A DNA stretch of 64,000 bases from Actinobacteria bacterium HGW-Actinobacteria-7 (lineage in GTDB: Bacteria > Actinomycetota > Coriobacteriia > Anaerosomatales > PHET01). The notes under the pieces are model-generated. The model was given only the letters and a program-made list of their open reading frames with translations, did not search any database and was not told where the DNA came from. Of the stretch, positions 2,292 through 34,805 are shown one piece after another. The translations under genes were made by a program, and so were the position numbers. The stretch lies in the NCBI GenBank assembly GCA_002841275.1, contig PHET01000004.1, positions 87,289 through 151,288 on the forward strand. Reading direction: 5' to 3'. Every line of letters begins with the position of its first letter. Position 1 is the stretch's first letter.

Positions 2292-3719
2292 ATGGCAGAC
2301 GCTGTCGAGACGCGCACCTCAGGGGATCGCGCCGCGAAGCTGTTCATGCTGTCCGCGGTGGGGTGGCTACTCTTCGGAGTGACCTTGGGGCTTATCCAGG
2401 CATTGGAGTTCATCGCGCCCGACTTCCTGGCCGGTATCCCGTGGCTGGTCTTCCCGCGAATCCGCCAGGCGCACGTCAACGGGCTGGCCTTTGGCTGGCT
2501 ATCGATGGCGATGATGGGTGGCTGGTACTACATCGTTCCGCGCCTCACGCGCACCAAACTCTACTCACAGACTCTGGCGCTGGTCACCGGCTGGCTGTGG
2601 AACGTGGCCCTGGCGATCGGCGTCGTTGGCGTCACGCTGGGATGGACCCAGGCCCGCGAGTACGCCGAGCTGGCTTGGCCGGTCGACATCGGCATCGTCG
2701 TCCTGCTTCTGCTCACAGGCTTCAATATCTTCATGACCATCGCCCGCCGAGAAGAGAAGGATCTCTACGTCTCTCTGTGGTACATCATGGGCACGCTCAT
2801 CTGGTTCCCCATCGTGTTCTCGATCGGAAACGTCATCTGGGCACCACCCACCGGCGCTCTGGCTGGTCTCAACGATGCGATCTGGGGCTGGTTCTACGGC
2901 CACAACATCCTCGGACTCTGGTTCACAACAGGATCGATCCCGATTCTGTACTTCATAGTCCCCAAGGAGGTGAAGCGCCCGCTGTATGGCTACAAGCTCG
3001 CGCTCATCGCCTTCTGGTTCCTCGCGTTCTTCTACTCGGCAGTCGGTACGCACCACATCCTGCAAGCGCCGGTGCCCGAATGGCTCAAGACCATCTCGGT
3101 CATCACGTCGATCGGGCTGCTGATTCCCGTCGCGGCGTTCGTGGTGAACATCTTCATGACGATGCGTGGCTCGTGGCGAGTGGCGTTCTACTCGATTCCA
3201 CTGCGGTTCGCACTGACCGGCGCGTTCTGGTACTTGGCGGTCAGTTTTCAGGGTTCACTTCAGGCGTTGCGCGGGCTGAACCAATACGTGCACTTCACCA
3301 ACTGGAGCGTGGCGCACGCACACCTCGCGTTGCTCGGCTTCGTGGCCTTCTCCATGTGGGGCGGTGTCTACTACATGATGCCGCGCATCACCGGTAACCC
3401 CCTGTACTCCGAGCGGCTGGGCTGGACCCACTGGTGGCTGACGACCTTCGGGTTCATCGGCTTCTTCCTCGTGCTGACAGCCGCTGGTCTGGTACAAGCG
3501 GCCGGGTTCTCGCGTGGGATTCCCATCATTCAGATACTGCCGGGCATCGAGCCTCTTTTCATCGGCCGAGCAGCCACAGGCACGATCATCATCTTCGGGC
3601 AGTACCTCTTCGCCTACAACATCATCCGCACGCTGAGAGGTAACCGCGCCACCAGTGAAGTCCCCGAAGTGTCCGCTGCCGATAAGCCCGCGGCATCCGC
3701 CGCGTCGGCGACGGCGTAG
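2292..3719 (+). CDS. ccoN: cbb3-type (C-family) heme-copper oxidase subunit I
   Basis: 475 aa, polytopic. Contains HVNGLAFGW, WFYGHNILGLWF, GTHHILQ and NWSVAHAHLALLGF. RBS AGGAGG lies upstream. Confidence 0.9.
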   Translation: MADAVETRTSGDRAAKLFMLSAVGWLLFGVTLGLIQALEFIAPDFLAGIPWLVFPRIRQAHVNGLAFGWLSMAMMGGWYYIVPRLTRTKLYSQTLALVTGWLWNVALAIGVVGVTLGWTQAREYAELAWPVDIGIVVLLLLTGFNIFMTIARREEKDLYVSLWYIMGTLIWFPIVFSIGNVIWAPPTGALAGLNDAIWGWFYGHNILGLWFTTGSIPILYFIVPKEVKRPLYGYKLALIAFWFLAFFYSAVGTHHILQAPVPEWLKTISVITSIGLLIPVAAFVVNIFMTMRGSWRVAFYSIPLRFALTGAFWYLAVSFQGSLQALRGLNQYVHFTNWSVAHAHLALLGFVAFSMWGGVYYMMPRITGNPLYSERLGWTHWWLTTFGFIGFFLVLTAAGLVQAAGFSRGIPIIQILPGIEPLFIGRAATGTIIIFGQYLFAYNIIRTLRGNRATSEVPEVSAADKPAASAASATA

Positions 3720-3733
3720 AAGGGAGTCCGAAG

Positions 3734-5611
3734 ATGCACATGTCACCTCGCACAATCATCATCGGCGGGCTCGCCGTGGTTCTCTCGGTAGTCGCCGTGG
3801 TCGTGTTCCTGCCGTTCGCTGTGTTCCGGCCAACACCCACGGTCACCACGCTGAAGTACACCGCACTCGAACAAGAAGGTCTCGAGCTCTACAAGTCCAA
3901 CGGATGTATGTACTGCCACAGCCAGTTCACTCGCCCCCACGATCACAACACGTCGCGGGTGAGCGTCGCTGGTGAGTATGTCTACGACCAGCCGCACCAG
4001 CTGGGAACACTTCGCACCGGACCGGACCTCGCGAACATCGGATTCAAGCGGGGCGACCGCTGGGAGATGGATCACCTGCTCAACCCGCGCAAATACACTC
4101 CGAACTCGATCATGCCCGCCTTCAGCTACTTGAGCGAGCATCAGCTCGAGGCCCTGGTCGCCTACCTCAATCGCAAGGGCAACAAGCGAAACGCCTCGAC
4201 GGACCTCATGATTCCCGCCGAGTATGACGACGTGAAGCAGCCGCTCGAACTGAGCATCGAGACATGGAACGCAGGCCGCAAGATCTACGCGGAGCGGTGC
4301 CTGACCTGTCACGGATGCGCGGGCAAGGGCGACGGCCCCTACGCCTACATCAATAACGCCAGACCCGCCGACCTGCGGCAACCGCGGTTCAAGGGCCTGG
4401 ATGCCAACTTCTTCTTCTGGCGACTTCGCGAGGGCGTGCCCGGTACCGTCATGCCTCAGTGGGAGGAATCGCTTTCGACCACCGAGATCTGGCAGGTCAT
4501 CGCCTTCATCCAGGGCGGGTTCATGGACATGGTGCCGCACTTCACCGACGAAGGTGACCTGCCGGCGGACTATGCCAAACTCACAGACCCGCTCAAGCGC
4601 GACGATGCGAACCTCGACGCGGGCAAAGCGATCTTCAACATGAACTGCGCGTTCTGCCACGGGTATGGCGGCATGGGAGACGGCCCGGACGCTGCCGGCC
4701 TCGCGCCCGCGCCGCCCAACTTCCACGACACCGCAACCTACGCGGAATGGACGGCGCCGGACTACTTCTGGCGCATCAGCGAGTCGATTCCCATGCGCGC
4801 GATGCCCCAGTGGAAGTACGTACTCGACGAGAAGCAGCGCTGGCTCGTGAGCAACTACGTCCGAGACGTACTCATCTTCCCGCCTGCGGAGGCCGAGCCC
4901 GTCGATCCGACGATACCGACTGCAGTCGAAGCCATGACGATGCCCAAGGGCGCCGACATCATGAAGGGTCGCGAGGTCTATCTGAAGCGGTGCTTCACCT
5001 GTCACGGCGATGCCGGCCAGGGGGAAGGTCCCTCCTCGGTGGTACTGCGTCCGACACCCGCCAACTTCACCGACCCGGACGTGGACGAGATTCCCGATTT
5101 CGAGCTGTTCTGGAAGGTCACGATGGGGCTGAGCAACTCAGCCATGCCGCAGTGGGGCCTGCTCCTGTCCGAGCAAGACCGCTGGAACGCCCTGCTCTAT
5201 GTGAAGAAGACCTTCGTCGCCCCGAGCGAGCCCCAAGACGTCAGCGATGAGCTGCCCGTCGCCTACCAAGCGCTCGAGCCGACCGTCGAGGACACGACAA
5301 GCGCTCGGGCGGCTGGGAAGCTCGCTTACGAGGCCTTCTGCTCGGAGTGCCACGGCCCCAAGGGGCTGGGCGACGGCCCGTATGGACCCGCGCTCATGCC
5401 GACGCCCGCCAACCTCGCCGAGGACCCGGCGTCAGTCTCCCCCGCCGAGTGGTGGTACTGGCGCCTCGACCAGGGCGTCGTGGGCTTCGACGGCAAGACA
5501 CCTCATCCCACCGCGATGCCCGCGTGGCGCTTCATCCTCACCGATGAGCAGAAATGGGACATCATCTTCTACGCCCGCGATCTCGTGGGTGCCAAGGATG
5601 GTGCTCAGTAA
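3734..5611 (+). CDS. CcoO-like monoheme subunit fused to four CcoP-type cytochrome c domains (5 CXXCH motifs)
   Basis: N-terminal TM helix, then NGCMYCHSQ ... GPDLANIG ... IMPAF (CcoO signature). Four further domains carry CLTCHG, CAFCHG, CFTCHG and CSECHG, each followed by GDGP/GEGP and an MPxW axial-Met motif. Confidence 0.85.
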   Translation: MHMSPRTIIIGGLAVVLSVVAVVVFLPFAVFRPTPTVTTLKYTALEQEGLELYKSNGCMYCHSQFTRPHDHNTSRVSVAGEYVYDQPHQLGTLRTGPDLANIGFKRGDRWEMDHLLNPRKYTPNSIMPAFSYLSEHQLEALVAYLNRKGNKRNASTDLMIPAEYDDVKQPLELSIETWNAGRKIYAERCLTCHGCAGKGDGPYAYINNARPADLRQPRFKGLDANFFFWRLREGVPGTVMPQWEESLSTTEIWQVIAFIQGGFMDMVPHFTDEGDLPADYAKLTDPLKRDDANLDAGKAIFNMNCAFCHGYGGMGDGPDAAGLAPAPPNFHDTATYAEWTAPDYFWRISESIPMRAMPQWKYVLDEKQRWLVSNYVRDVLIFPPAEAEPVDPTIPTAVEAMTMPKGADIMKGREVYLKRCFTCHGDAGQGEGPSSVVLRPTPANFTDPDVDEIPDFELFWKVTMGLSNSAMPQWGLLLSEQDRWNALLYVKKTFVAPSEPQDVSDELPVAYQALEPTVEDTTSARAAGKLAYEAFCSECHGPKGLGDGPYGPALMPTPANLAEDPASVSPAEWWYWRLDQGVVGFDGKTPHPTAMPAWRFILTDEQKWDIIFYARDLVGAKDGAQ

Positions 5612-5793
5612 TGGATCTCGCCGTCTACATGATCATCGCCACATGTACGGTCTTCGCGACGATCGCAGCGGTGACGCTGGCCTGGTCGTTCGCGGCCGGC
5701 CAGTGGCGCGACCTCGAGCACAATGCGAACATCGTCCTGGCCGATGACGACCCGTATCCGGGCACGCGCCCGGCACATCCGAACGGAGCGTGA
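5611..5793 (+). CDS. ccoS: cbb3 oxidase maturation protein CcoS/FixS
   Basis: ORF 5554..5793 trimmed to the ATG at 5611 (TAATG overlap with the upstream stop). MDLAVYMIIATCTVFATIAAVTLAWSFAAGQWRDLEHNANIVLADDD matches the CcoS pattern (single TM helix, GQxxDLE, DDD). Confidence 0.8.
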   Translation: MDLAVYMIIATCTVFATIAAVTLAWSFAAGQWRDLEHNANIVLADDDPYPGTRPAHPNGA

Positions 5794-5799
5794 TCACGC

Positions 5800-6120
5800 A
5801 TGCCCGCACAGCAGACCGGCGCGATCTGGTGGGCCCTGGGCGTGGGTGCCGGGTTCATCGTCGTCATCTACTTCCTCATAAGCTCTGCGTGGTTTCGCAA
5901 GGCGACAAACGACGCGGTTCCCGTGTCCGATGAACTGCCCGAACCGACCCAGCCCATCCACGAATACCCTGAAGGGCTGGCCGAGGCGCATGGGAAAGTG
6001 CCGGTGGTGCTTAAGATCCTCATCGGCAGCTTCCTCGTCTTTCTGGTCTACTACGTCGCGCAGTTCCTGATTGCCATGAACGGCACGCTGGGTACTTTCG
6101 ACCGATACCTGACCAAGTAG
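5800..6120 (+). CDS. small two-TM membrane protein in the cbb3 cluster, function unknown
   Basis: 106 aa with two hydrophobic helices. It sits between ccoS and the assembly genes. I recognise no motif. Confidence 0.55.
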   Translation: MPAQQTGAIWWALGVGAGFIVVIYFLISSAWFRKATNDAVPVSDELPEPTQPIHEYPEGLAEAHGKVPVVLKILIGSFLVFLVYYVAQFLIAMNGTLGTFDRYLTK

Positions 6121-20027: not shown

Positions 20028-20130
20028 CCCCACCTGCCGCACGGTTGCCCCCACTATCGTCCGAGGTGTACGATTCGTCTGTTCGGGCCACGCTCGCGTA
20101 CCCGGATATTGACAGCCGAGGAAGTCAGCT

Positions 20131-20357
20131 CCGTCCGTTACGGTGCGGCTCCTGTTCGAACACAGGCCACTGCCCGGAAATGTCGAGAGACGCCAATGGG
20201 TAGAACAGCCCTCGCCGGCTTAAGGCGAAGGCTAAGGTGGCTGGGCTCGTGGACCGGCGCGCAAGCGACCGGCACCACAGGTGGGGCACGACCCCATCGC
20301 GTCGACGACACCACGCGTCGCGCGCCCTACGTCGGACAGTGCCAAATCCACAGACGA
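20131..20357 (+). promoter_or_regulatory. M-box (ykoK) Mg2+ riboswitch aptamer
   Basis: GUUACGGUGCGGCUCCUGU...CACUGCCCGGAAAUGUCGAGAGACGCCAAUGGGUAGAACAG...UUAAGGCG...GCUAAGGUGGCUGG...ACAGUGCCAAAUCCACAGACG aligns block by block with the B. subtilis mgtE M-box as I remember it (GUUAGGUGAGGCUCCUGU...CUGCCCAAAAAUGUCCAAAGACGCUAAUGGGUCAACAG...ACAGUGCUAAAGCUCUACG). Confidence 0.9.
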
Positions 20358-20442
20358 GGGATCGAGCGGTGACAGACCGGCACGTGCTCCCGCCTGAGGT
20401 GGGTCCGCGTGCTGTCATGTGCGCGACGCACACCACCGTACG

Positions 20443-24414: not shown

Positions 24415-25305
24415 CTACTTGCTGGCGAGGTACTTCATGATTCCGTTCGCCATACCCTCTGCGAGCTTCTTTTGGTAGGCCGCAGTATCGAGTTTGCGGT
24501 CCTCGGCGGAGTTGCTCATGAACCCCATCTCGACAAGGACCGTGGGCACCTTCGCCCAGTTGAACCCGCTCAGGTCGCTACGCTTCACAAGCCCGCGGTC
24601 GGCAGCCCCACTGCTCTTGACCACCGCATCGTGGATGTAGCGCCCCGCCGTCTTGCTCTCGTCAACGATCGGTGCGGTCCAGCTGTTCTTGGCGGGGATC
24701 AACGTCGAAAGCCCGTGCAGACTGTGGTTGTTGTTGCCATCGCAGTGCAAGCGGATGAAAACGTCCGCGTGCGCATCGTTGGCGATCTGCGCCCGCTTCG
24801 AGTTCGCGATGTTCACATCCTGTTTGCTGCGGACCATGACCACCTTCACCCCCCGGCTCTCGAGTTCGTCCCGCAGCCGCTTGGCGACCTCGAGGTTCAC
24901 GCTGCTTTCCGAGTTGTGCGTCGCAACGCCGCTGGTCCCCCCGGATACCTTGGGCTTCATCTCGGTAGCGCCCGGCCCTATGGGCTCGAGGCTCGAATCC
25001 GCCTTCTGCTGATGGCCCGCGTCAATGACCACGGTGGCCGAGAACGTCTTGGTCGGCTTCGGCTTTGCAGGTTGCGGCTTGGGTGCTGCCAGCTTGGGGG
25101 CAACGGGTTCCGGTTCGACTGTGGCCGGCACGGTGGCTACGACCGTAGCGCTTGCCACAACCGAGGCGCTGGGCTCGGGCTGCATCGTCGCGGTGGCTGA
25201 TTCGGTCTGCGGGCTCGGCACAGGGCCCACCATCGCGTTGATCACCCCACTGGCCACGGCCAGTACCGCTGCCAACCCGAGGACGATTCCGCCCAGGGTC
25301 AACAT
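24415..25305 (-). CDS. N-acetylmuramoyl-L-alanine amidase (Amidase_3)
   Basis: TM anchor and Pro/Ala-rich linker, then VVIDAGHQ, ADVFIRLHCDG and LVEMGFMSN. The start is uncertain (25305 or 25413). Confidence 0.8.
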   Translation of the reverse strand: MLTLGGIVLGLAAVLAVASGVINAMVGPVPSPQTESATATMQPEPSASVVASATVVATVPATVEPEPVAPKLAAPKPQPAKPKPTKTFSATVVIDAGHQQKADSSLEPIGPGATEMKPKVSGGTSGVATHNSESSVNLEVAKRLRDELESRGVKVVMVRSKQDVNIANSKRAQIANDAHADVFIRLHCDGNNNHSLHGLSTLIPAKNSWTAPIVDESKTAGRYIHDAVVKSSGAADRGLVKRSDLSGFNWAKVPTVLVEMGFMSNSAEDRKLDTAAYQKKLAEGMANGIMKYLASK

Positions 25306-25387
25306 GATCCGCTTCGTCGAGACCTGATCTCGCTCGTTGTACAACGTGCGCCTGCTTTCACAACAACGGTGAACCGAGCGGCGTCCC

Positions 25388-26533
25388 CTACTTGGGCGCC
25401 CGCTTGACTGCATAGAGTTCTTCGACCGTCACGAACAAGTAGCCCTTCGCCCTGAGCTTCTTGATGATGGTCGGCAGCGCCTTCACCGTCTGACTTCGGT
25501 CTCCCCCACCGTCGTGCATAAGGATGATCGAGCCGGGCTTCGCGTGCCTGACCACGTTGGAGGCGATCTTCTGGGCCCCAGGCTTCGTCCAGTCCTTGCT
25601 GTCGACATCCCAGATGACAACGTGGACCTTCTCGACGCGAGCTACCTTCCACGACTTGGCATTCATGCCTCCGTACGGAGGTCGCAACCAACGCGTGCTG
25701 ACTCCGGTGTACTTCTTTATCGCGGCAGCACCGCCGCGAATCTGGTGCTTGATCTCCTTGGGCTTCTCTTTGGTCAGGAGCCGGTGGCCCAGGGTGTGAT
25801 TCGCCACCTGATGCCCCTCGGCTACCACGCGGCGCGCGACGGCTGGCGCCTTCTTGACGCGCACTCCAAGCATGAAGAATGTGCCGGGCACCTGCTCACG
25901 CTTGAGAACATCGAGAATCGCCTCGGTGGACTTGGGCCACGGGCCGTCATCGAAGGTGAGGGCCACGACTTTCGTTCCCGCCCTGGGGTGGAACCGCTGG
26001 ACCACGGCGTCGTTGGGCTGTATGAGCACGGTACTCGAGACCTCGACACCGGACAGCGCTCCACGCGTCACCAGACGAACGCCTGGTACACCTGGAACCC
26101 GCTCTTCGATCAGAGAGCCCTTGCCCAGATAGCTGATTGCGAAGGGAACCGAGACCTCTGTCGTCTCGAGTGACTCACGGAGGTCGGCACCCGGTCGGCT
26201 GACGATGACATCCCCGCTATGCAGCAGTTCGTCGGGGGTCGCAGGATGGCCGTTGCGCAGCACTTGGATCGGTTGACCACCACGAACCCTGGTCACCGTG
26301 CCATCGACAGCGAGCATATCTCCTGCTGAGGATCTGTACGTCCCGGGGCCCAGGGTGCGCACCGTGGCTCCGTTGGATACTTCACGAGAGACCCCGTCAA
26401 CGGTGACTGTCGAAGGGCGGGACGCGGCCCAGCCCGCGGTGAGGGCGAGTACGAGCAGAATCACGATGGCGCCGGCCACGGTTCCCCAAACCACGCGGGA
26501 CCGCGGCGGACGGTCTATGACGTCATTTGACAC
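25388..26533 (-). CDS. polysaccharide deacetylase (NodB/PgdA family), membrane-anchored
   Basis: Contains ALTFDDGP, HQVANHTLGH and LMHDGGG. I prefer the GTG start at 26533, which follows GGAGGA, to the TTG at 26551. Confidence 0.8.
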   Translation of the reverse strand: MSNDVIDRPPRSRVVWGTVAGAIVILLVLALTAGWAASRPSTVTVDGVSREVSNGATVRTLGPGTYRSSAGDMLAVDGTVTRVRGGQPIQVLRNGHPATPDELLHSGDVIVSRPGADLRESLETTEVSVPFAISYLGKGSLIEERVPGVPGVRLVTRGALSGVEVSSTVLIQPNDAVVQRFHPRAGTKVVALTFDDGPWPKSTEAILDVLKREQVPGTFFMLGVRVKKAPAVARRVVAEGHQVANHTLGHRLLTKEKPKEIKHQIRGGAAAIKKYTGVSTRWLRPPYGGMNAKSWKVARVEKVHVVIWDVDSKDWTKPGAQKIASNVVRHAKPGSIILMHDGGGDRSQTVKALPTIIKKLRAKGYLFVTVEELYAVKRAPK

Positions 26534-26572
26534 AGAGTGGTCCTCCCGCAAGCACGCCGGTCAATCTGAGCT

Positions 26573-27061
26573 TCAGGCGTGCGAGATACATGCCACCCGC
26601 CCACCGGCTACCCGCGCAAGGTCCGCATAGCGCATGCGCACCATCGACGAAGGCGTGCCTGCGGCAGGGTAGACCGTTTCGAAGCGTGTGAGTGAATCAT
26701 CAATGAGCACAGTGAGTTCCTCGGGCAAGTCGAACGGCGACACCCCGCCGATCGCATATCCGGTGACCGCACGCACGGTATCGGCATCCGCCATCTTCGC
26801 CGCAGTCGCGCCCACCTCGCCGCAGATCGCGTCGAAATCTCCTCGACGATCTCCCGCGACCAGCGCGAGCACCGGGGTACCATCGGCCACCACTACAAGG
26901 GACTTCACGATCTGGCCGAGTTCACAGCCCATCGCCTCGGCGGCCGCGGCCGCCGTCTTGGTCGACTGCTCGAACTCGGTGAGGCCCTCGGCCAATCCGT
27001 GCGCTTCTAGAAACGCTCTCACTCGTTCGCGCGAGCCGGGCTTCTTCTGGGGCTGAGTCAT
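26573..27061 (-). CDS. YbaK/EbsC-type aminoacyl-tRNA deacylase
   Basis: Contains KSLVVVADG and GYAIGGVSPF. ATGA overlap with the upstream GNAT gene. Confidence 0.8.
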   Translation of the reverse strand: MTQPQKKPGSRERVRAFLEAHGLAEGLTEFEQSTKTAAAAAEAMGCELGQIVKSLVVVADGTPVLALVAGDRRGDFDAICGEVGATAAKMADADTVRAVTGYAIGGVSPFDLPEELTVLIDDSLTRFETVYPAAGTPSSMVRMRYADLARVAGGRVACISHA

Positions 27062-27699
27062 CGACGCCCGCCTGTCCATGACGCAGGGGCGCGGCTAGGC
27101 ACCCGCGTAGGGAATCTCAGTGAGTTCAGAACCGCTTCGAGGTTCTCGGACCAGCTCACGAGCGATCGCAGATCCAGCCTCATGAGCGGGAACTGCGCAT
27201 CCGGCCGCGATACCGTGAACCCGTTGCGCAGAAGAAAGTCGATTCCCAACATCGGGGAGTCCTCAATCACTGCAGGGCGCTGAGCTGCGGCGAACGCTTC
27301 GACCTTGCGCTCTCCTCGGCCAAGAAGGTCCTTGAGTGCGGCACGAAGCAGAACGCTGCCTAGGCCGTGATGGCGAGCATCAGCGGTAATGTGCAGACAG
27401 GCGATCATTGGCACCGTGGGATCCTCGGGCGCGGACGGGAACGTGGAGGACTGCGGAAAGTACCGGGATGGCGCGTATTTGATGAACCCGAGGATCTCGT
27501 CGTCCTCGCGGGCCACGCAACCGCACTCGCCCCACTCGTCAGTCACCTGCCGGTACCATGCCTCCTGGAGTTCCGGGTCACATACCGAACCGCACATGCG
27601 CCTGCGCTCACCTGCGCTTTCCCAGAACACACAGGACCCGCAGCTCATAGGGAGCTGGTCGAAGTCCGCGAGTGCGAGGGGTCTGAGCTTACGCGCCAT
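27058..27699 (-). CDS. GNAT acetyltransferase with Cys-rich N-terminus
   Basis: CGSCVFWE...CGSVC N-terminal region, then the GNAT core ARHHGLGSVLLRAAL. Confidence 0.7.
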   Translation of the reverse strand: MARKLRPLALADFDQLPMSCGSCVFWESAGERRRMCGSVCDPELQEAWYRQVTDEWGECGCVAREDDEILGFIKYAPSRYFPQSSTFPSAPEDPTVPMIACLHITADARHHGLGSVLLRAALKDLLGRGERKVEAFAAAQRPAVIEDSPMLGIDFLLRNGFTVSRPDAQFPLMRLDLRSLVSWSENLEAVLNSLRFPTRVPSRAPASWTGGRR

Positions 27700-27759
27700 T
27701 GCTGATGGGTGCCTCCGTCAAAGTGGTTCGTACAGTATAGACAGCAGCTTCGCTGCCAA

Positions 27760-28467
27760 TCACTTGTCTTCAGGCTCACCCATCATGTCGACGACCTCGT
27801 CCTTCATCGTCTTGAGCCAGCCCAGTGCCTTCTTGCCGGTCTTGCTTTCCGAGGCGACCTTCGCGGCAGCTTTCACATAGAGAGTGGCCGTCTTCACAGC
27901 CTTGCCAGCGACGTCCTTGGCGACTGCCGTACCGCGCCCAGCCGCCGCCGCCGCACCACCGCTCGTGTCGGCGGCCTGTGCCTCGTCGGCGACCACAACC
28001 ACCTCGCCGTCGAAACCGTCCACCATGGTCACAGGGATGTCTCGAACGCCCACCGCAACGTCAGCAGCCGCTCCGGAACTCAGTCCAAGCGCAGACAGCT
28101 CACCGGTGTCAGAGTCGAACAGACCGTCCCGCACGGTGCCCAGCGAGACCCCGCTCCGGGTTCTCACCTGCATACCCTGCCAGACGACCGTGGCGTCCCA
28201 GGAGGTCTTCAGCCGACTGGCTGCGGGCTTGTCCCAGCTCTCCCGGCCGCCGGTGACCCTCAACTCACCATCGACGATGTCCACGCTGTCGAGTGCAAGA
28301 TATCGATCACGCCGATCGAGGATCATCAGCAAGCGAGGCCTCGCGACGACGAACCCCACCACGGTCTTCGACTGCGGCGCGAACAACACGTCGGACACAC
28401 GTCCGACGCGCTTCCCATTGGCCGAGAACACCTCATGCCGATAGACCTTGCGAAGTGAGAATGTCAT
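27760..28467 (-). CDS. PRC-barrel domain protein (two copies) with Lys/Ala-rich tail
   Basis: VFSANGKRVGRVSDVLF... and a second segment VRTRSGVSLGTVRDGLFD...; this call is by resemblance only. Confidence 0.6.
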   Translation of the reverse strand: MTFSLRKVYRHEVFSANGKRVGRVSDVLFAPQSKTVVGFVVARPRLLMILDRRDRYLALDSVDIVDGELRVTGGRESWDKPAASRLKTSWDATVVWQGMQVRTRSGVSLGTVRDGLFDSDTGELSALGLSSGAAADVAVGVRDIPVTMVDGFDGEVVVVADEAQAADTSGGAAAAAGRGTAVAKDVAGKAVKTATLYVKAAAKVASESKTGKKALGWLKTMKDEVVDMMGEPEDK

Positions 28468-28550
28468 GCCCCGCCTTCCGGCGACAGGAACACCAAGGCC
28501 GGCCCCGCATGCGCCCAGGACCGGCCTCGATAGTAACAGCGTTTACGCGG

Positions 28551-29156
28551 CTAGACCCCCGCGACGCCCGGATCGTCGGTGACGACCGGATTGAACGTAC
28601 CCGAACCTTCGTCACCCTTGGCCTTCTTGGCCACGAAATCGAGCGTGTCCTGGGCCTTCGCGCCAGCAGAATCGAATCCACTCTTGGTCACATCGGCTGC
28701 TCTGTCAACGACGTCCTTAGCGGCGGGAACAACGTCGCCCAGCTTGTCCTTGGCGGTCTCCGCGGTCTTGGCAACCTGGTCCTTGAGCCTATCACGGGCC
28801 TCATCGATCTTCGCGCGCATCTGATCGGATGACTCGGCGACCTTCTCCTTGCCAGTCGAGTAGGCCTCAGTCGCCTTGTCCTTGCTGGTGGAGTACAGTT
28901 CTGTGGCCTTCTCCTTGCCGGTCGAATACAGCTCGGTGGCCTTCTCCTTGCCGGTCTCGATGGCCTCAGAGGCCTTCTCTACGCCGGTGTGGTAGATCTC
29001 GACGCCCTCGCCCCAATACTCCTCGGCCTTCTCGGTCAGGATCTCGCGAGTCTCCTTGCCAGAACGCGGCGCGAACAACAGGCCCAGCACGGCGCCTACA
29101 AGGCCGCCCAGCAGGAATGCCCCGAACACTGACCCCCCACGGCGATATTCATACAT
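28551..29156 (-). CDS. YtxH domain general-stress-type protein with 11-aa repeats
   Basis: GGLVGAVLGLLFAPRSGKETRE is the YtxH motif. It is followed by repeats TGKEKATELYS / TSKDKATEAYS. Confidence 0.8.
   Translation of the reverse strand: MYEYRRGGSVFGAFLLGGLVGAVLGLLFAPRSGKETREILTEKAEEYWGEGVEIYHTGVEKASEAIETGKEKATELYSTGKEKATELYSTSKDKATEAYSTGKEKVAESSDQMRAKIDEARDRLKDQVAKTAETAKDKLGDVVPAAKDVVDRAADVTKSGFDSAGAKAQDTLDFVAKKAKGDEGSGTFNPVVTDDPGVAGV
28822..28986 (-). repeat. 33-bp in-frame tandem repeat (about 4-5 units) inside the ytxH-like gene
   Basis: Units at 28855, 28888, 28921 and 28954, for example gtggagtacagttctgtggccttctccttgccg / gtcgaatacagctcggtggccttctccttgccg. Confidence 0.7.
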
Positions 29157-29248: not shown

Positions 29249-30196
29249 TTAGCTCCGGGCAAGTGCAGCCGCGATGACCTTTGATACCACGTCTTGGAAA
29301 GTCATGCCAGCCGCCTTGGCGGCCATTGGCAGAAGGGAAGTCTCGGTCATGCCCGGCGAGGTGTTGCACTCGAGGACCTGCGGGACGCCCGCACTGTCGA
29401 TCACCATGTCGACGCGGCTCACATCTCGGCATCCGATCAGCTGATGGACGCGCGCTGCAATGGACGCAGCGCGAGCGGCAACGTCGGCGCTGACCCTGGC
29501 CGGGACAAAGAAATCCGCTCCGTCTGCCGCCATGCGTGCGTCGAAGTCATAGAGCGCGCCCGTGGGGACGATCTCAACGGCGGGTAGCACCTCGACCTCG
29601 TCTCCGGTCCCCAGGACGGTGATTGCCAGTTCGGTCCCATCAATCCAACGCTCGACGATCGCAGCGGTGTCATACGACAGCGCGTCGAGAAGCGCCTCGG
29701 CCAGCTGTCCCGCGCTCTGCACCTTGCGCATCCCCAGCGCAGAGCCCTGCCGAGAAGGCTTCACGGCCACCGGGAACCCACCAACCGCCTCTCCCATCAG
29801 GTCGATCGCGGTGGCGGCACCCATCTCCTTGAACGCATCGGCGGTCAGTGTGACCCACGCTGGAGTGGACACGCCGTTCTCGGCGAGAAGATGCTTGGTG
29901 ACCGACTTGTCCCACGAGAGTGCGCTCGCGACGACTCCGGGACCGGTGTAGGAGATGCGGAGGAACTCGAGCAGCTCCTGGATGGTGCCGTCCTCCCCAT
30001 ACTTGCCGTGAAGGGCGATGTACGCCGCGTTGGGGCGCTCGCTTCGCAGGGTGCCCACGAGGTCAGCGGTCACGTCGAGCGCGAGCACGTAGTAGCCGGC
30101 TGCCTCAAGCGCAGCGCAGACTTGTCGGCCACTGGACAGTGATACTTCGCGCTCGAGCGAGCGCCCGCCCATCAGAACCGCGATCTTCTCTCTCAC
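29249..30196 (-). CDS. D-Ala-D-Ala-ligase-family ATP-grasp enzyme with variant omega-loop residues
   Basis: Trimmed to the GTG at 30196 (GTGA overlap with the aminotransferase stop). Contains KIAVLMGGRSLEREVS, KPSRQGSALGM and NTSPGMT. Where E. coli DdlB has FYDYEAKY, this protein has LYDFDARM. Confidence 0.85.
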   Translation of the reverse strand: MREKIAVLMGGRSLEREVSLSSGRQVCAALEAAGYYVLALDVTADLVGTLRSERPNAAYIALHGKYGEDGTIQELLEFLRISYTGPGVVASALSWDKSVTKHLLAENGVSTPAWVTLTADAFKEMGAATAIDLMGEAVGGFPVAVKPSRQGSALGMRKVQSAGQLAEALLDALSYDTAAIVERWIDGTELAITVLGTGDEVEVLPAVEIVPTGALYDFDARMAADGADFFVPARVSADVAARAASIAARVHQLIGCRDVSRVDMVIDSAGVPQVLECNTSPGMTETSLLPMAAKAAGMTFQDVVSKVIAAALARS

Positions 30197-31470
30197 GCCG
30201 CTCCCTCCTCGACTTCGATAGCACCCGCGGCAATGAATGCGCGGTAGAGTTCCAGTCGGTCTTCGAGCACCTCGGCCAGCCGCCGGATCCCCTCGGCGAT
30301 CTTCTCTGGCTCGGCGTAGCAGAACGCCAGCCGCATGCAGTTGCGCCCACGACCGTCGGGGTAGAACCCGTCGCCCGGCACGAATGTGACGCCGTGCTCG
30401 ACCGCCTCGGCGAGCATGGAAGCGCAGTCGACATAGGGCGGCATCTCGACCCACACGAAGAAGCCACCATCCGGCCTGGTCCATCGCGCTTCCGGTGGGA
30501 AGTGCTCGTCGAGCGCCGCGAGCATCGCGTCACGGCGTTCCGAGTACGTCGCCGTCAGCCCCTGAAGCACGCGCCGCCACCGCGTGCCCAGGAAGTAGCG
30601 CTCGGCGGTGACCTGCGCGAAGTTGCTACCGCACAGGTCAGCGCCCTGCTTTACCAGAAGTATCTTGGCCAGTATCGGCCGAGGGGCTGTGACCCAGCCC
30701 AGTCGCAGGCCCGGCGCAAAGATCTTCGAGAACGTGCCCAGGTAGATGACCTCGTCGTCGAGTGAGCGCAGCGGCTTCATGTGTCCGCCCTCAAAACGCA
30801 GACGTCCGTACGGATCGTCCTCGACCACGGGGATGTCGTACTCGCGCGCCAGCTCGAGCAGCCTGCGCCGGCGCTCCGGTGACATCGTCACGCCAGCCGG
30901 GTTCTGGAAGTTCGGAATCGTGTAGATGAACTTCGCACCACGCGGCCCCAGACGCTTCAGCTCCTCCTCGAGCAGGTCCGTGCGCATCCCGTCGTCGTCC
31001 ATGGGGATGCAGCGGATATCGGGCTGGTATGCCGAGAAGGCCTGAAGGGCTCCCACATACGTGGGCCCCTCGGTGATGATGACATCGCCGGGATCGATGA
31101 ATGCCTTGGCGATCAGATCGAGCGCCTGCTGCGCGCCCGCGGTCACCACGACCTCGCCAGGCGAGAGGCGCACGCCAATCTCGGCCATCAGCTCGGCAAT
31201 GATGGTGCGAATCTGCTCGCGCCCTTCGCTGGAACCATACTGCAGCGCAGCGGCTCCCTCGTGCATGATCGCCTCGGACGCCGCTTGGGCGACCGCCGCA
31301 ATGGGGACCCTCGAAACCTCCGGCATGCCTCCGGACAATGAGATCATGTCGGGCATCGACGCTGCCGCGAACAGGTCTCGGACGGCGCTCGAGCGTACGC
31401 TGGCGATCCGCCTCGCGTACCGATCCCCCCACCTATCGAACACCACACGTGCGGTACCCATACCCGTCAC
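30193..31470 (-). CDS. PLP-dependent aminotransferase, class I/II (LysN/ARO8-like)
   Basis: Contains NFQNPAG and the PLP lysine in TFSKIFAPGLRLGW. The start is GTG 31470 or ATG 31461, the latter after AGGTGA. Confidence 0.85.
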   Translation of the reverse strand: MTGMGTARVVFDRWGDRYARRIASVRSSAVRDLFAAASMPDMISLSGGMPEVSRVPIAAVAQAASEAIMHEGAAALQYGSSEGREQIRTIIAELMAEIGVRLSPGEVVVTAGAQQALDLIAKAFIDPGDVIITEGPTYVGALQAFSAYQPDIRCIPMDDDGMRTDLLEEELKRLGPRGAKFIYTIPNFQNPAGVTMSPERRRRLLELAREYDIPVVEDDPYGRLRFEGGHMKPLRSLDDEVIYLGTFSKIFAPGLRLGWVTAPRPILAKILLVKQGADLCGSNFAQVTAERYFLGTRWRRVLQGLTATYSERRDAMLAALDEHFPPEARWTRPDGGFFVWVEMPPYVDCASMLAEAVEHGVTFVPGDGFYPDGRGRNCMRLAFCYAEPEKIAEGIRRLAEVLEDRLELYRAFIAAGAIEVEEGAA

Positions 31471-31497
31471 CTACCCCTGGAGACGCGAAACGTCCCC

Positions 31498-31539
31498 GAG
31501 AAACAGAACAGCCCCCTCCGCCTGATAGGGCGAGGGGGC
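31498..31539 (-). terminator. intrinsic terminator of the T-box leader
   Basis: The minus strand reads GCCCCCUCGCC-cuaucag-GGCGGAGGGGGC followed by UGUUCUGUUUCU. Confidence 0.8.
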
Positions 31540-31750
31540 ATCGCGGTACCACCTATCTTCGCTCGATCGCGCCGATCCTCTCGGCGATCTCAAGCCTCAT
31601 TCCCGGGATACCGGTCCGGGACCGACCCGCTTCCGTACGGCGTCAGCCGCCCTGGCGGGGGACATCGGAGGGGTGGCCGGGCATCGCGCCCTCTTCCCTC
31701 ACGTCCGTGGTGTCATATCCAGTCCTGCCAAGAAGAACCTCGCAGGTGTT
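31498..31750 (-). promoter_or_regulatory. T-box tRNA-sensing leader
   Basis: The minus strand 31554-31542 reads AGGTGGTACCGCG (T-box core). The antiterminator is GAUAGG/[UGGUACC]/GCG..CGC/CCUAUC, with a competing terminator. Upstream, GUGAGGGAAGAGGGC resembles the K-turn and specifier-loop 5' strand. Confidence 0.85.
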
Positions 31751-31755
31751 GGGGC

Positions 31756-31785
31756 ACTCTATCACCGTGGAGCGCACAGGGTCAA
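31756..31785 (-). promoter_or_regulatory. candidate sigma-70-type promoter for the T-box operon
   Basis: The minus strand has TTGACC (31785-31780), an 18-nt spacer and TAGAGT (31761-31756). Confidence 0.35.
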
Positions 31786-31877
31786 CGCTCGGCCGCCGGG
31801 CGTCAACCTCGCGTCACCATGCCTGATCATCGGGCACGGTGTATATTCCGCGCTCTGCCCACCACGATGGTGGCGAT

Positions 31878-34805
31878 CTATCGGCCGAAACGCTCCCCAA
31901 TCGCTTCAACCACCTGCGTGCTCACCATACGCTCGACGTCTGCCACGGGCAGCGCTTCGAGGAACCGTGCGCCATACCCCTTGCGAACCACCCGCGCATC
32001 GGCGATCACGAGGCAGCCCGTGTCGGTGCTGCTCCGAATCAGCCGGCCAGCGGCCTGCTTCAGTTCAAGCACCGCTTCGGGAAGAGAATAGCGATTCCAC
32101 GCGGCACGTCCTTCTCGGCGTTCTCGCTCGCACGACAACGGATCCGTGGGGCGGCCGAACGGAAGCTTGGGCACGACCACGCAGCGCAGCGTGTCGCCCT
32201 TCGCGTCGAAACCCTCCCAGAAACTCTTGAGGGCGAAGAGCGAGAGGTGCTCATCAGCCAGAAACTCGTCGCGCAGGCGCTTGGCCGACGTTCCCCTACG
32301 CTGACAGATCAGATCCAAACCCTTCGTCCGCAATCGTGGCTCCAGCAGCGCATGGAGGCGCTCCATGTCGCGGCGATTGGTGAAGAGCGTCAGCACGCTC
32401 CCACCCATAGCCACATGCACACCCTCAAGCAGCGCCTCGAGCCGGGACAGATAGCCCGCTTCTCGCGGTTCCGGCAGATCCGTTGGCACGAACACCGCCA
32501 TCTGACGTTCGAACTCGTAGCTCGATTCGAGGCGCAGCGCGCGCCACTTCGCGCGGTCCAGACGATCGAGTCCCACGCTGCGTGCGAAGTGCTCGAACGA
32601 CTCTCCTGCCGCGATGGTGGCTGAGGTGAAGACCACGCTGTGCGCCCGCGGATAGAGATCCTCTGCAAGCACTTCCCCGATATCCAACCGCTCGGCGACG
32701 AGCTTCTCGGCATTGATGCCTGCCCGACGATCGAGCGTTGCCGAGTAGACCAGCGCGTCATTCTCCCCGTCGACCACCGCCACAAGGCCCAGATGCTGAT
32801 CTGCAAGTCGGGTGAGCAGCCCGACAAGGTCAGCGCGCGGGTCGGAAGCCTCGGGACCGTACTCTTCGAGTCTAGTCACGAGTTCCCGCCCCTCAGCAAG
32901 CAGCTCCGCGAGTCGTCGCGCGAGCGAGCGCCCCGTCGATGCGACCGTGCCCCAAGGCCCGCTCTCCCGCACCTGATCGGTCAGCCAGAGCTCGGCGGCG
33001 TCGTAGTCGCTGTCCCCCGCAAGCGGCGCGAGGTCCTTCACGAACTCGAAAAGCGATTGGGCCAGCGTCGCGCAGCGCTGAGTGCCCTCCTCCATCTGCG
33101 TGATGAGCCCTAGGAGCGCCCCCGCGTGCTGGTCGCCCGCGAGCTTCTTGCGCACAGACTCGAGCAGGCCTCCACGCTTCGTATGTAGTGCGCCGAGGAC
33201 CACCGACAGCTCCAGTTGGCTCGCGCCCAGCGTGAGCTGCTTGCGTGCTTCACTCTCCGCCGAGTGCGCTTCGTCGATGATCCAGTGCCGCACCGGTGGC
33301 AGTATCCCACCCTGCGCCACGACGTCCCTGAAGAGCAGCGCGTGGTTGGTAACCACGATGTTCGAGCTAGCGGCGCGACGGCGAACCCCATGCAGGTAGC
33401 ACAGATTGGGGTAGTAGCGGCAGCGCTTGTGCGTACAGTCGGCCTGGCTCGCCTGGACCGAGGCGCGCAGCTCGCGCCGCCAATGCAGGTTGACCGCGTC
33501 GAGATCTCCCCAAGCGCTCTGCCCCACCCACGCGATCAACATCGCAATCGCCGAGATGAGCTCGGGATCAGACCCGTCGTGCAGCTCTCCTGCCGCACGT
33601 TCGAGCTTGCGCAGGCACGGATAGTGGTCGTAGCCCTTCAGTGCGACGTAGCGGAGCTCTCCTCCCAGCGCCTCGTTCAGACGCGGCAGCTCGTGGTAGA
33701 CCAGCTGGTCCATGAGCGCATTGGTCTTGGTCGCGACGCCTACCCCCACCCGATTCTCAAGTGAGAAGAGGGCCGCGGGGACCAGGTAGGCCATGGACTT
33801 GCCCACGCCCGTTCCTGCCTCGATGGCCACATGCGTGGATGTCTCGAAGGAGGCGAGCACCGCCCGCGCCATCTCGACCTGCTCGGAACGCTTCTCGAAT
33901 CCGGGGTACATGCGCCCCGCGAGGCCTCCGGTCGCGAACTCCGCTGCCACCTCCTCGGACGCCGGACACGTGCACTCGATATCATCGGCATCGCGCAGCG
34001 TCTCGCCCTTGTCGGCTGCGACCCTGCGTCTGCGCACCTCCTTCAGGTCATAGGCAGCACGCGGATGAGCCGCGGCGATCCGGGCGAGCCACGGCCGTTC
34101 AGGCCACGGAGCGCTGGGTGCAAGGCCTGCGATGCGGGAGATCAGCCCGGGCTCGAGTTCGGCCACTCCGGTCAGCGCGACGCGCCAGATGCGCGTGAGC
34201 GCCTCGACGTCGTGCGCGGCCCGATGAGCGGAGTCGGTGAGTTCCGGTGCGAACGCCGCAGCCAGATCGGTGAGTCTGTGGCTGCGCACGCGCGGTAGCC
34301 CGATTCGGGTGAAGACCAGGGAGTCGAGCCATGTCGTCGCGACGACTCCCCTCCCCGCGACAGCCTCGAGAAACCCTCTGTCGAACGCACCGTTGTGCGC
34401 AACGACCTCTCGGCCTCCCGCGAACTCAGCGAGTCTGGCGACTGCGGCCTCTGCGCAAGGAGCGCCCTGCACCGTCTGGTCATCGATACCCGTGAGTTTC
34501 GTGATCTCGGTGGGGACAGGCACCATGGGGTCCACCAGTGAGCTGAACCGCTCAAGCACCTCTGGACCTCGCATGATGGCGGCGGCCACCTCGATGATCC
34601 GATCGCGGGAAGCGTCATAGCCGGTCGTCTCGATATCGAGGACGCAGACCTCTTCCTCGAACCCGAAGGTCGCTTCTCGGGCGCGCTCGGCAAACGTCGC
34701 ATAGGCGTCGACGATATCCGGATCGGTGCCCGGAAGAATCAGCGATGAGAGGGCATCTGAGGTCACGGCCGCCAGCGTATCACGCGGCTGCGACAGTTCC
34801 GGCAC
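31878..34805 (-). CDS. dinG: DinG-family helicase fused to an N-terminal DEDDh exonuclease
   Basis: VLDIETTGYD...HNGAFD...HRAAHD is the exonuclease part. AIEAGTGVGKS and IIDEAHS are the helicase part. The start codon is uncertain: the GTG at 34805 abuts the upstream terminator. Confidence 0.85.
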   Translation of the reverse strand: MPELSQPRDTLAAVTSDALSSLILPGTDPDIVDAYATFAERAREATFGFEEEVCVLDIETTGYDASRDRIIEVAAAIMRGPEVLERFSSLVDPMVPVPTEITKLTGIDDQTVQGAPCAEAAVARLAEFAGGREVVAHNGAFDRGFLEAVAGRGVVATTWLDSLVFTRIGLPRVRSHRLTDLAAAFAPELTDSAHRAAHDVEALTRIWRVALTGVAELEPGLISRIAGLAPSAPWPERPWLARIAAAHPRAAYDLKEVRRRRVAADKGETLRDADDIECTCPASEEVAAEFATGGLAGRMYPGFEKRSEQVEMARAVLASFETSTHVAIEAGTGVGKSMAYLVPAALFSLENRVGVGVATKTNALMDQLVYHELPRLNEALGGELRYVALKGYDHYPCLRKLERAAGELHDGSDPELISAIAMLIAWVGQSAWGDLDAVNLHWRRELRASVQASQADCTHKRCRYYPNLCYLHGVRRRAASSNIVVTNHALLFRDVVAQGGILPPVRHWIIDEAHSAESEARKQLTLGASQLELSVVLGALHTKRGGLLESVRKKLAGDQHAGALLGLITQMEEGTQRCATLAQSLFEFVKDLAPLAGDSDYDAAELWLTDQVRESGPWGTVASTGRSLARRLAELLAEGRELVTRLEEYGPEASDPRADLVGLLTRLADQHLGLVAVVDGENDALVYSATLDRRAGINAEKLVAERLDIGEVLAEDLYPRAHSVVFTSATIAAGESFEHFARSVGLDRLDRAKWRALRLESSYEFERQMAVFVPTDLPEPREAGYLSRLEALLEGVHVAMGGSVLTLFTNRRDMERLHALLEPRLRTKGLDLICQRRGTSAKRLRDEFLADEHLSLFALKSFWEGFDAKGDTLRCVVVPKLPFGRPTDPLSCERERREGRAAWNRYSLPEAVLELKQAAGRLIRSSTDTGCLVIADARVVRKGYGARFLEALPVADVERMVSTQVVEAIGERFGR

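Follow-up and report, generated by a model that had tools for sequence, protein, structure and literature searches.

The 64,000-nucleotide (nt) stretch of Actinobacteria bacterium HGW-Actinobacteria-7 contig PHET01000004.1 analyzed here (the window; all coordinates are in its numbering) carries on its minus strand an aminotransferase gene followed by ddl, the gene for a D-alanine–D-alanine ligase. Ahead of the two genes, at 31785–31498 of the same strand, lies a leader in which a T-box, an RNA element that senses transfer RNA (tRNA), had been proposed from the letters alone (the original prediction). The T-box core, antiterminator, terminator, Stem I hairpin, and GCC triplet quoted there are all present on the minus strand at the positions collected in Table 1. 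Our analysis adds Stem II, a Stem IIA/B pseudoknot with an F-box, Stem III, a conserved promoter, and a 5′-proximal hairpin. As folded here, the leader is predicted to hold every T-box module except the tRNA-elbow platform, in the canonical order Stem I, Stem II, Stem IIA/B, Stem III, bulge, and antiterminator helices A1 and A2.

The aminotransferase has no NCBIfam equivalog at cut-off and is 100% identical to a protein of an HGW-Actinobacteria metagenome-assembled genome (MAG). Members of its family are at present labeled “2-aminoadipate transaminase” or “PLP-dependent aminotransferase family protein” (PLP, pyridoxal phosphate). The closest solved relatives are PH0207/KAT-II-like enzymes, the Thermococcus multiple-substrate aminotransferase, the T. 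litoralis alanine:glyoxylate aminotransferase, and Thermus LysN, and the protein appears to be a broad-specificity class I enzyme. The second gene product had been called a “Ddl-like” ligase, which understates it: the protein scores as a genuine Ddl with the NCBIfam models PRK01372 (328.6 bits; cut-off 243) and TIGR01205 (265.5 bits; cut-off 245.65). The proposed operon itself stands. The GTG start codon of ddl overlaps the aminotransferase stop codon by 4 nt (GTGA, 30196–30193), and the two genes are predicted to be translationally coupled.

Table 1. Positions of the leader elements and of the two genes that follow them.
Feature	Position	Strand	Remarks
Promoter	31756..31785	−	−35 element TTGACC, 31785–31780; 18-nt spacer with TG; −10 element TAGAGT, 31761–31756
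5′-proximal hairpin P0	31724..31746	−	CCUGC…GCAGG; between the putative transcription start and Stem I
Stem I	31660..31706	−	Short, platform-less; alignment and pair counts
Stem I 5′ strand	31702–31688	−	GUGAGGGAAGAGGGC; read from the sequence
Proposed specifier GCC (Ala)	31675..31677	−	Putative; followed by invariant A (31674) and C (31673)
Stem II	31626..31659	−	Base helix CCCGC/GCGGG; variable apical helix
Stem IIA/B H-type pseudoknot	31601..31625	−	IIA UCGG/CCGG; IIB (U)CCCGG/CCGGG(A)
Stem III	31558..31598	−	Conserved purine flanks: 5′ GAG(G), 3′ (G)AA
Antiterminator	31524..31557	−	A1 GAUAGG/CCUAUC; bulge UGGUACC, 31551–31545; A2 GCG/CGC
T-box core	31554–31542	−	AGGTGGTACCGCG; 13-mer read from the sequence
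Intrinsic terminator	31498..31539	−	Stem GCCCCCUCGCC/GGCGGAGGGGGC, 31539–31511; U-rich tract CUGUUCUGUUUCU, 31510–31498
Class I PLP-dependent aminotransferase	30193..31461	−	422 amino acids; PF00155; Shine-Dalgarno (SD) sequence AGGUGA ~6 nt before ATG
D-alanine–D-alanine ligase Ddl	29249..30196	−	315 amino acids; GTG start at 30196

With the aminotransferase protein as the only query, 80 orthologous loci (46–94% identity) were fetched from GTDB species representatives. In 41 of 41 loci with at least 76% identity, the motif AAGAYAGGUGGUACCGCG precedes the gene by 70–145 nt, and the loci that bear it are MAGs of the Coriobacteriia/Anaerosomatales type. It is absent from all 39 more distant loci, which belong to the Eggerthellaceae (60–65%) or to the Solirubrobacterales/Thermoleophilia and a few others (46–50%). 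In every T-box locus that reaches far enough, ddl follows the aminotransferase gene directly. One locus (L010) has an insert of ~0.7 kb (5228-6001 in that locus) between the two genes, which elsewhere abut or overlap. The pair also occurs in the T-box-less Eggerthellaceae and in some Thermoleophilia, and its retention beyond the T-box clade argues for a functional link through alanine.

In a MAFFT alignment of the 41 leaders (alignment A1, distinct from helix A1), invariant blocks alternate with variable hairpins. When RNAalifold was run without a supplied structure, it recovered the base of Stem II, helix IIB, and Stem III, with many compensatory changes. An explicit T-box structure laid on the alignment gave standard pairs in 94.0% of the cells, compared to 42–56% in slid controls, in which the 3′ partners were moved by 1–3 columns. 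Both sides change in 19 of the 41 pairs, a number that none of 500 shuffles reached. The covarying helices are the basal helix of Stem I, the base of Stem II, IIB, the base of Stem III, and antiterminator helix A1.

A family covariance model (R1) built from the leaders scored 142–184 bits on its members. In the 39 orthologous loci that lack the T-box it found nothing, the best score there being 15.5 bits (E = 0.11). Of 100 unrelated loci from metagenomes, two gave a genuine match to R1, L118 (154 bits) and L165 (147 bits), neither of which had been used in training; the other 98 gave none. Both copies precede the same aminotransferase–ddl operon and carry the same specifier strand. A pattern scan of metagenomes with the Stem I 5′ strand GTGAGGGAAGAGNGC led to the same two genuine sites; among the matches listed, 118 of 121 were chance matches in coding sequence. 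In the Eggerthellaceae loci L039–L052 (Raoultibacter and Adlercreutzia), the sequence upstream of ~4001 contains no T-box, no Rfam family, and no R1 match.

The 13-nt core occurs once in the window, where 0.04 chance matches would be expected with one mismatch allowed. Its 7-nt bulge UGGUACC adjoins helix A1 and is invariant in 43 copies; within it, UGGU (31551–31548) is complementary to the tRNA 3′ end ACCA. Helices A1 and A2 are paired in 100% of the cells of the alignment, and A1 covaries (C-G to U-A in 19 sequences and A-U to U-A in 2). The terminator reuses the 3′ strands of A2 and A1 (CUCGCC), so that the two structures are mutually exclusive. The original prediction of a T-box-type leader with such a switch is thus borne out, and the alternative is kept in 41 of the 41 relatives.

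As loop lengths differ between the aligned sequences, the terminator was assessed by folding each sequence separately. The hairpin is present in all 41 leaders, at −15 to −23 kcal/mol (median −18.9), and the antiterminator has a median ΔG of −6.5 kcal/mol. These energies are similar to the TBDB averages of −19.5 and −7.4 for terminator and antiterminator, respectively (bioRxiv 10.1101/2020.06.17.157016). The 10-nt tail after the hairpin contains a median of 7 U at a background U content of 15.6%. From the end of the hairpin to the ATG there are 23–100 nt (median 43), and the ATG has its own SD sequence (AGGUGA or GAGGAG) at a distance of 6–10 nt, which the hairpin does not include. Hairpin strength, U-rich tail, distance to the ATG, and free SD sequence together indicate attenuation of transcription rather than sequestration of the SD sequence; regulation is transcriptional. 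A generic terminator scanner left the terminator of the window unflagged, because its U-tract is interrupted. A G-C pair instead of G•U at the base of A2 was considered as a deviation from the “steric sieve” and dropped, since CGC-CCCU is also found in three of seven canonical T-boxes. A further hairpin (GGGGACG-UUUC-GCGUCUCC) at ~31478-31497 of the minus strand, between the terminator U-tract and the SD sequence, has similar counterparts in several relatives.

The base helix of Stem II is paired in 99.5% of the cells, with compensatory changes in three of its five pairs (C-G to U-A, 10 sequences), and it leads to an invariant, purine-rich internal loop with CAG opposite GGAA. The IIA/B pseudoknot can be drawn in ~40 of the 41 leaders and contains an F-box-like ACCGGUA in the window and CCGUUA in many relatives. 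All five pairs of IIB covary (CCCGG/CCGGG, GCCGG/CCGGC, CCCGA/UCGGG, GACCGG/CCGGUC, and GUUCCC/GGGAAU), and so does every one of the six pairs that form the base of Stem III. The bases that flank Stem III (G121, A122, G123, A160, and A161) are invariant and of the same kind as the purine string “RRRxG–Stem III–AA” known from T-boxes (PMC7583486). Judged by all features of the discriminator domain and of Stems II and III, the leader is predicted to be a T-box.

Stem I starts 148 nt before the core; the original figure of ~110 nt holds only for a count from the 3′ end of Stem I. Its basal helix, GGAC/GUCC in the window, covaries (GAAC/GUUC and AGAC/GUCU). Above it, an invariant GA-motif-like GUGA (31702–31699) faces a conserved N-A-N and resembles the consensus gaUGA…gGA. 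The lower helix GAGGG/CCCUC shows no variation among the leaders. Two apparent compensatory changes in it, seen in another alignment (A3), came from a 15-bit chance match (L042) that had been swept in and were discounted. The specifier loop that follows is an internal loop with AAGA on its 5′ side and RGCCAC on its 3′ side, and the upper helix shows one compensatory change (GAGC/GCUC). Pair C16–G56 is mismatched in 5 of the 41 sequences, without compensation.

Directly above the specifier loop sits the apical hairpin, GGGC-GCGAU-GCCC in the window (loop 31683-31687). It measures 13–17 nt and varies in length and sequence across the family, and Stem I ends 4–7 base pairs above the specifier loop. 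The aligned leaders have no AG bulge/distal-loop elbow platform, the interdigitated T-loops (IDTM), in Stem I. The short Stem I without a distal platform described in the original prediction is therefore confirmed. In about 60% of members (L014–L038 and others), the apical loop reads (A/G)YCAUCN, which holds AUC and a purine, the context in which actinobacterial ileS T-boxes present their Ile specifier in the apical loop; the subclade of the window has unrelated loops, such as GCGAU. The (A/G)YCAUCN loop may have been inherited from an ileS-type ancestor. The apical loop itself was ruled out as an ileS-style specifier, being unconserved even between the window and most relatives.

The layout of Stem I was compared with the consensus of RF00230, the Rfam T-box family, by way of a canonical T-box with a long Stem I (L225). 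In that consensus, the K-turn gaUGAa is followed by a 4-base pair helix and a 5′ loop AaaAGUA, while on the other strand a 3′ loop GAA-a-NNN-r stands directly before the helix and is followed by gGA. UGA-GGG-AAGAG of the window aligns with UGA-a-agGG-AaaAG, and its upper helix takes the place of the S-turn (UA opposite GAA). In the terms of a 2020 review (PMC7583486), Stem I of the leader would be called “intermediate”; its codon sits in a side bulge, and it is not of the ultrashort ileS type.

The strand RGCCACCCCUCC, which presents the specifier, does not vary in any of the 43 copies with a Stem I, so that the frame cannot be read from covariation. Folding favors the GAGGG/CCCUC register (−18.9 kcal/mol) over a K-turn–style GGG/UCC register (−11.3 kcal/mol), with C47–C51 paired at p ≥ 0.96 and RGCCAC unpaired at p = 0.73–1.0. 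In L012, the one natural variant, positions 51–52 read AG instead of CC, which leaves four pairs of the GAGGG/CCCUC register intact and abolishes the GGG/UCC register. The UGGU bulge implies a tRNA with A73. Such an A73 fits bacterial tRNA-Ala, tRNA-Pro, and tRNA-Thr and excludes tRNA-His (CAC). T-box specifiers are expected to have C at the third position, a rule linked to Stem II contacts, and to be followed by a purine (PMC7583486). GCC followed by A is the sole frame in the invariant strand that satisfies both rules. The downstream genes point to alanine as well, since Ddl uses D-Ala and the relatives of the aminotransferase include an alanine:glyoxylate enzyme. The earlier assignment of GCC as an alanine specifier thus remains the best reading, although the invariant strand does not fix the frame. 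It is likely, in our estimate, that the specifier reads Ala; Pro would be an unlikely reading, and other amino acids share the remaining probability.

The sequences show the conserved, covarying architecture, the mutually exclusive helices, the U-tract, the placement ahead of the start codon, and the operon; we infer tRNA binding, which tRNA is read, the sign of the regulation, and an aminotransferase that makes alanine. On balance, the leader is probably a T-box riboswitch that controls transcription of the aminotransferase–ddl operon by tRNA-dependent antitermination, most likely in response to tRNA-Ala(GGC). The short Stem I would expose the codon in its side bulge, and Stem II, the IIA/B pseudoknot, and Stem III would fold next. 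When alanine is sufficient, the charged 3′ end of tRNA-Ala would be unable to pair with UGGU; the stabler terminator would form and RNA polymerase would halt around 31510–31498. Under alanine limitation, GCC–GGC pairing would hold the uncharged tRNA-Ala, with Stem II and the pseudoknot in support, and the ACCA end of this tRNA would pair with UGGU and stabilize A1 and A2. These helices would withhold CUCGCC from the terminator, and read-through would allow expression of the aminotransferase and the translationally coupled Ddl. Without an elbow platform, capture of the tRNA must depend on codon–anticodon pairing, to which Stem II and the pseudoknot would lend support.

Several observations weigh against this reading. 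Neither covariation nor a synonymous change fixes the specifier frame. In strict canonical register, the codon would occupy the three bases that precede the last unpaired one and would read CCA (Pro), followed by C; the GCC-A frame is shifted from this register by one base, with C46 left over. According to TBDB, Ala T-boxes favor specifiers that end in U. There are no tRNA genes in the window or in the 41 loci from which to read an anticodon or a discriminator base. The K-turn is non-canonical: its bulge measures 2 nt instead of 3 nt, the facing strand has one nucleotide too many, and the minimum-energy register places its GA in Watson–Crick pairs. The AGUA/GAA S-turn of the consensus is absent from the specifier loop. 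The match to RF00230 is below threshold, and nothing upstream of the antiterminator is aligned by that model. Alanine is a presumed product of the aminotransferase. Last, transcriptional T-boxes generally need the elbow platform for quick tRNA capture, and it is dispensable only in translational ones (PMC7583486). Function of this leader without a platform is a prediction that conflicts with that rule.

The alternative that survives best keeps the same T-box attenuator and assigns it another tRNA, either tRNA-Pro (CCA in the canonical frame or CCC in the GGG/UCC register) or tRNA-Thr (ACC). The codon slot of RF00230, three positions before the last unpaired base, does yield CCA and then C on RGCCAC, and alignment of GCCA-CCC-C to the consensus GAAa-NNN-r yields CCC. 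It is also generally known that tRNA-Pro and tRNA-Thr have the A73 compatible with UGGU, and a gene for a YbaK-type tRNA(Pro)-editing domain lies four genes downstream. However, none of the Pro or Thr frames has the near-universal purine 3′ of the codon, and CCA violates the C rule (PMC7583486). CCC and ACC would require melting of a helix that is stabler by 7.6 kcal/mol and paired at p ≥ 0.96. For CCC, whose register would preserve the K-turn, this penalty is to be read with the proviso that nearest-neighbor energies ignore K-turn tertiary contacts, and L012, which retains the GAGGG/CCCUC register and destroys the K-turn register, also disfavors it. Neither the aminotransferase nor Ddl has an evident tie to proline or threonine supply, whereas in a survey of T-box–controlled genes of known function the specifier always matched the function (PMC2494555). 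We therefore regard another tRNA as unlikely, if somewhat less so than Pro taken as the amino acid read.

The behavior of RF00230 bears on whether the leader senses a tRNA at all. The model has no match in the window at the gathering threshold, none at E ≤ 10 in 31300–32000 (701 nt), and none in 15 orthologous loci. On the 193-nt leader alone it scored 15.0 bits against a gathering score of 93 (E = 0.18), in a match to model positions 183–216 of 219, that is, to the antiterminator only. The original prediction had named a search with this family as its check and the absence of a match as refutation. That test is too strict, since even the canonical long-Stem-I T-box L225 scores only 87.2 bits, also under the 93-bit gathering score of the Rfam copy used, and the model is unable to align a Stem I without an IDTM. 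For short-stemmed actinobacterial T-boxes, TBDB needed a separate custom model (bioRxiv 10.1101/2020.06.17.157016). The insignificant RF00230 match, together with a Stem I that is off consensus (no S-turn, no platform, and a non-canonical K-turn), could suggest that the effector is a protein, a metabolite, or a leader peptide, or that a constitutive attenuator merely resembles a T-box in its antiterminator. We consider this very improbable: all T-box modules bar the platform are present in canonical order and covary, the UGGUACC bulge stands invariant beside A1, and the Stem III flanks and the F-box are conserved. No conserved small open reading frame is evident, as AUG-ACA-CCA-CGG-ACG-UGA of the window is not common to the relatives, and an invariant, exposed RGCCAC is the behavior expected of a codon that contacts a tRNA.

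The least credible alternative is a translational T-box like those of actinobacterial ileS, in which the “terminator” would be a sequestrator helix hiding the ribosome-binding site: short or intermediate IDTM-less Stem I’s have been described mainly for translational T-boxes (PMC7583486) and the 3′ strand of the hairpin is G-rich and SD-like (GGAGGGGG), but the distance to the start codon and the free SD sequence speak against it, as do the U-rich tract after the hairpin in all members, the lack of a start codon at SD spacing after the G-rich strand in the window, and the complementarity to invariant CCCUCGCC that explains the G-richness.

Taking the tRNA-Ala antiterminator as the preferred reading, the leader can be set beside known systems. 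Canonical transcriptional T-boxes (RF00230; B. subtilis tyrS and glyQS) have the same order of modules, a 7-nt UGGNACC bulge between A1 and A2, and a U-tract terminator exclusive with the antiterminator; the leader differs from them in its missing IDTM and AGUA/GAA S-turn, non-canonical K-turn, extra 5′ hairpin, and low RF00230 score. The ileS T-boxes of M. tuberculosis, M. smegmatis, and N. farcinica come from the same phylum, are also platform-less, and share with the leader a conserved discriminator domain, Stem II, and the IIA/B pseudoknot. Stem II and IIA/B are essential for tRNA binding when Stem I is truncated (PMC7583486). In the ileS T-boxes, the specifier AUC is in the apical loop, the SD sequence is sequestered, and translation of ileS is controlled (PMC7583486; TBDB preprint). 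In contrast, the leader has a side-bulge codon below a small hairpin and an intrinsic terminator well upstream of the SD sequence, and it would regulate an aminotransferase and ddl; with a specifier that is not apical and an SD sequence outside the hairpin, it falls outside the ileS class. The likeness to ileS leaders drawn originally thus holds for the missing platform but not for an apical specifier or translational control. Short-stemmed ileS T-boxes work by codon contact plus Stem II and the pseudoknot, to which the leader may be likened, except that its read-out is transcription.

Two further systems touch on the genes regulated. The S. aureus glyS T-box synchronizes glycine supply for protein synthesis and for pentaglycine bridges (PMC4574755 and PMC9177973), and so, like that of the leader, its output bears on both translation and the cell wall. 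It regulates a synthetase, however, and its link to the wall is through tRNA-Gly for Fem enzymes, whereas the operon of the leader itself holds Ddl. The C. glutamicum hisDCB leader is likewise an actinobacterial element with proposed tRNA sensing before amino acid biosynthesis genes rather than a synthetase gene. It has no Stems II and III, its T-box sequence is moderately conserved, and its T-box status is doubtful (PMC3896937); the present leader has both stems and the T-box sequence, with covariation.

Known T-box targets are aminoacyl-tRNA synthetase, biosynthesis, and transporter genes (PMC2494555 and PMC3766115), and no paper on a link between a T-box and ddl was found in the literature searched. 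What appears new here, from sequence comparison, is a T-box family that is transcriptional despite having no platform, is limited to one uncultured clade of Coriobacteriia, and counts a cell-wall ligase among its predicted targets. Earlier work outside the literature searched may already describe terminator-type T-boxes that lack the platform. We put forward tentatively, with slightly more doubt than assent, that the family is an uncatalogued T-box class, confined to the uncultured Coriobacteriia/Anaerosomatales clade, in which a platform-less, co-transcriptional (kinetic) decision ties tRNA-Ala charging to D-Ala–D-Ala synthesis and alanine supply.

Because RF00230, which is also the TBDB model for transcriptional T-boxes, misses this whole conserved family, censuses of T-boxes outside the Firmicutes are probably incomplete. 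As a natural counter-example to the platform rule, the family could be used to probe kinetic substitution by Stem II, the pseudoknot, or P0. The placement of ddl and the aminotransferase gene under a tRNA sensor suggests that the supply of cell-wall precursors is coupled to the charging state of tRNA-Ala; if true, this would extend the T-box regulon from synthetases, biosynthesis, and transport to a cell-wall enzyme. An Ala specifier would also give a functional hint, that of an alanine-forming transaminase, for this aminotransferase family.

The 5′ part of the leader is conserved as well. The sigma-70–like promoter is the single match in 31200–32100 (0.2 expected), and TTGACC, a 17- or 18-nt spacer, and TGnTAnnnT are kept 5′ of the leader in relatives. 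Transcription would start at ~31750–31748, and the leader measures ~290 nt counted from the promoter. Hairpin P0, which is outside the canonical T-box plan, is found in ~40 of the 41 leaders with 5–9 base pairs of variable sequence at a constant position (the same place in L001–L055). P0 might compensate for the missing platform. Directly 3′ of it there is a loosely conserved GGAUA/GAAUA/GAACA stretch.

The reference T-box L225 is located on an IMG/VR viral contig (3156-3357, minus strand) and has GCC in the RF00230 codon slot. It precedes the gene of a chloramphenicol-acetyltransferase–family protein (2456-3151, minus strand), an unusual T-box target. In a scan of viral contigs for canonical T-boxes, ~63 of 71 matches lacked an antiterminator and are probably chance matches; an Rfam run on eight of the viral-contig matches found nothing.

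After ddl, the same strand (24415-29156) encodes YtxH, PRC-barrel, and GNAT proteins, the YbaK-like editing domain, a polysaccharide deacetylase, and an N-acetylmuramoyl-L-alanine amidase. Gene order through YbaK is kept in most T-box loci that extend that far and is absent in at least six. No consensus terminator was found among the genes after ddl; the ddl–YtxH spacer has only a strong hairpin that lacks a U-tract. The same-strand upstream neighbor of the leader (31878-34805) encodes a DinG-like protein of 975 amino acids with an RNase T exonuclease domain and a DEAD/Helicase_C_2 helicase; among the fetched loci, it was seen only in the closest relative (L001). Elsewhere in the window, the plus strand carries at 20127-20368 an M-box (Mg2+) riboswitch aptamer (RF00380; 113 bits against a gathering score of 44), the only Rfam family above threshold.

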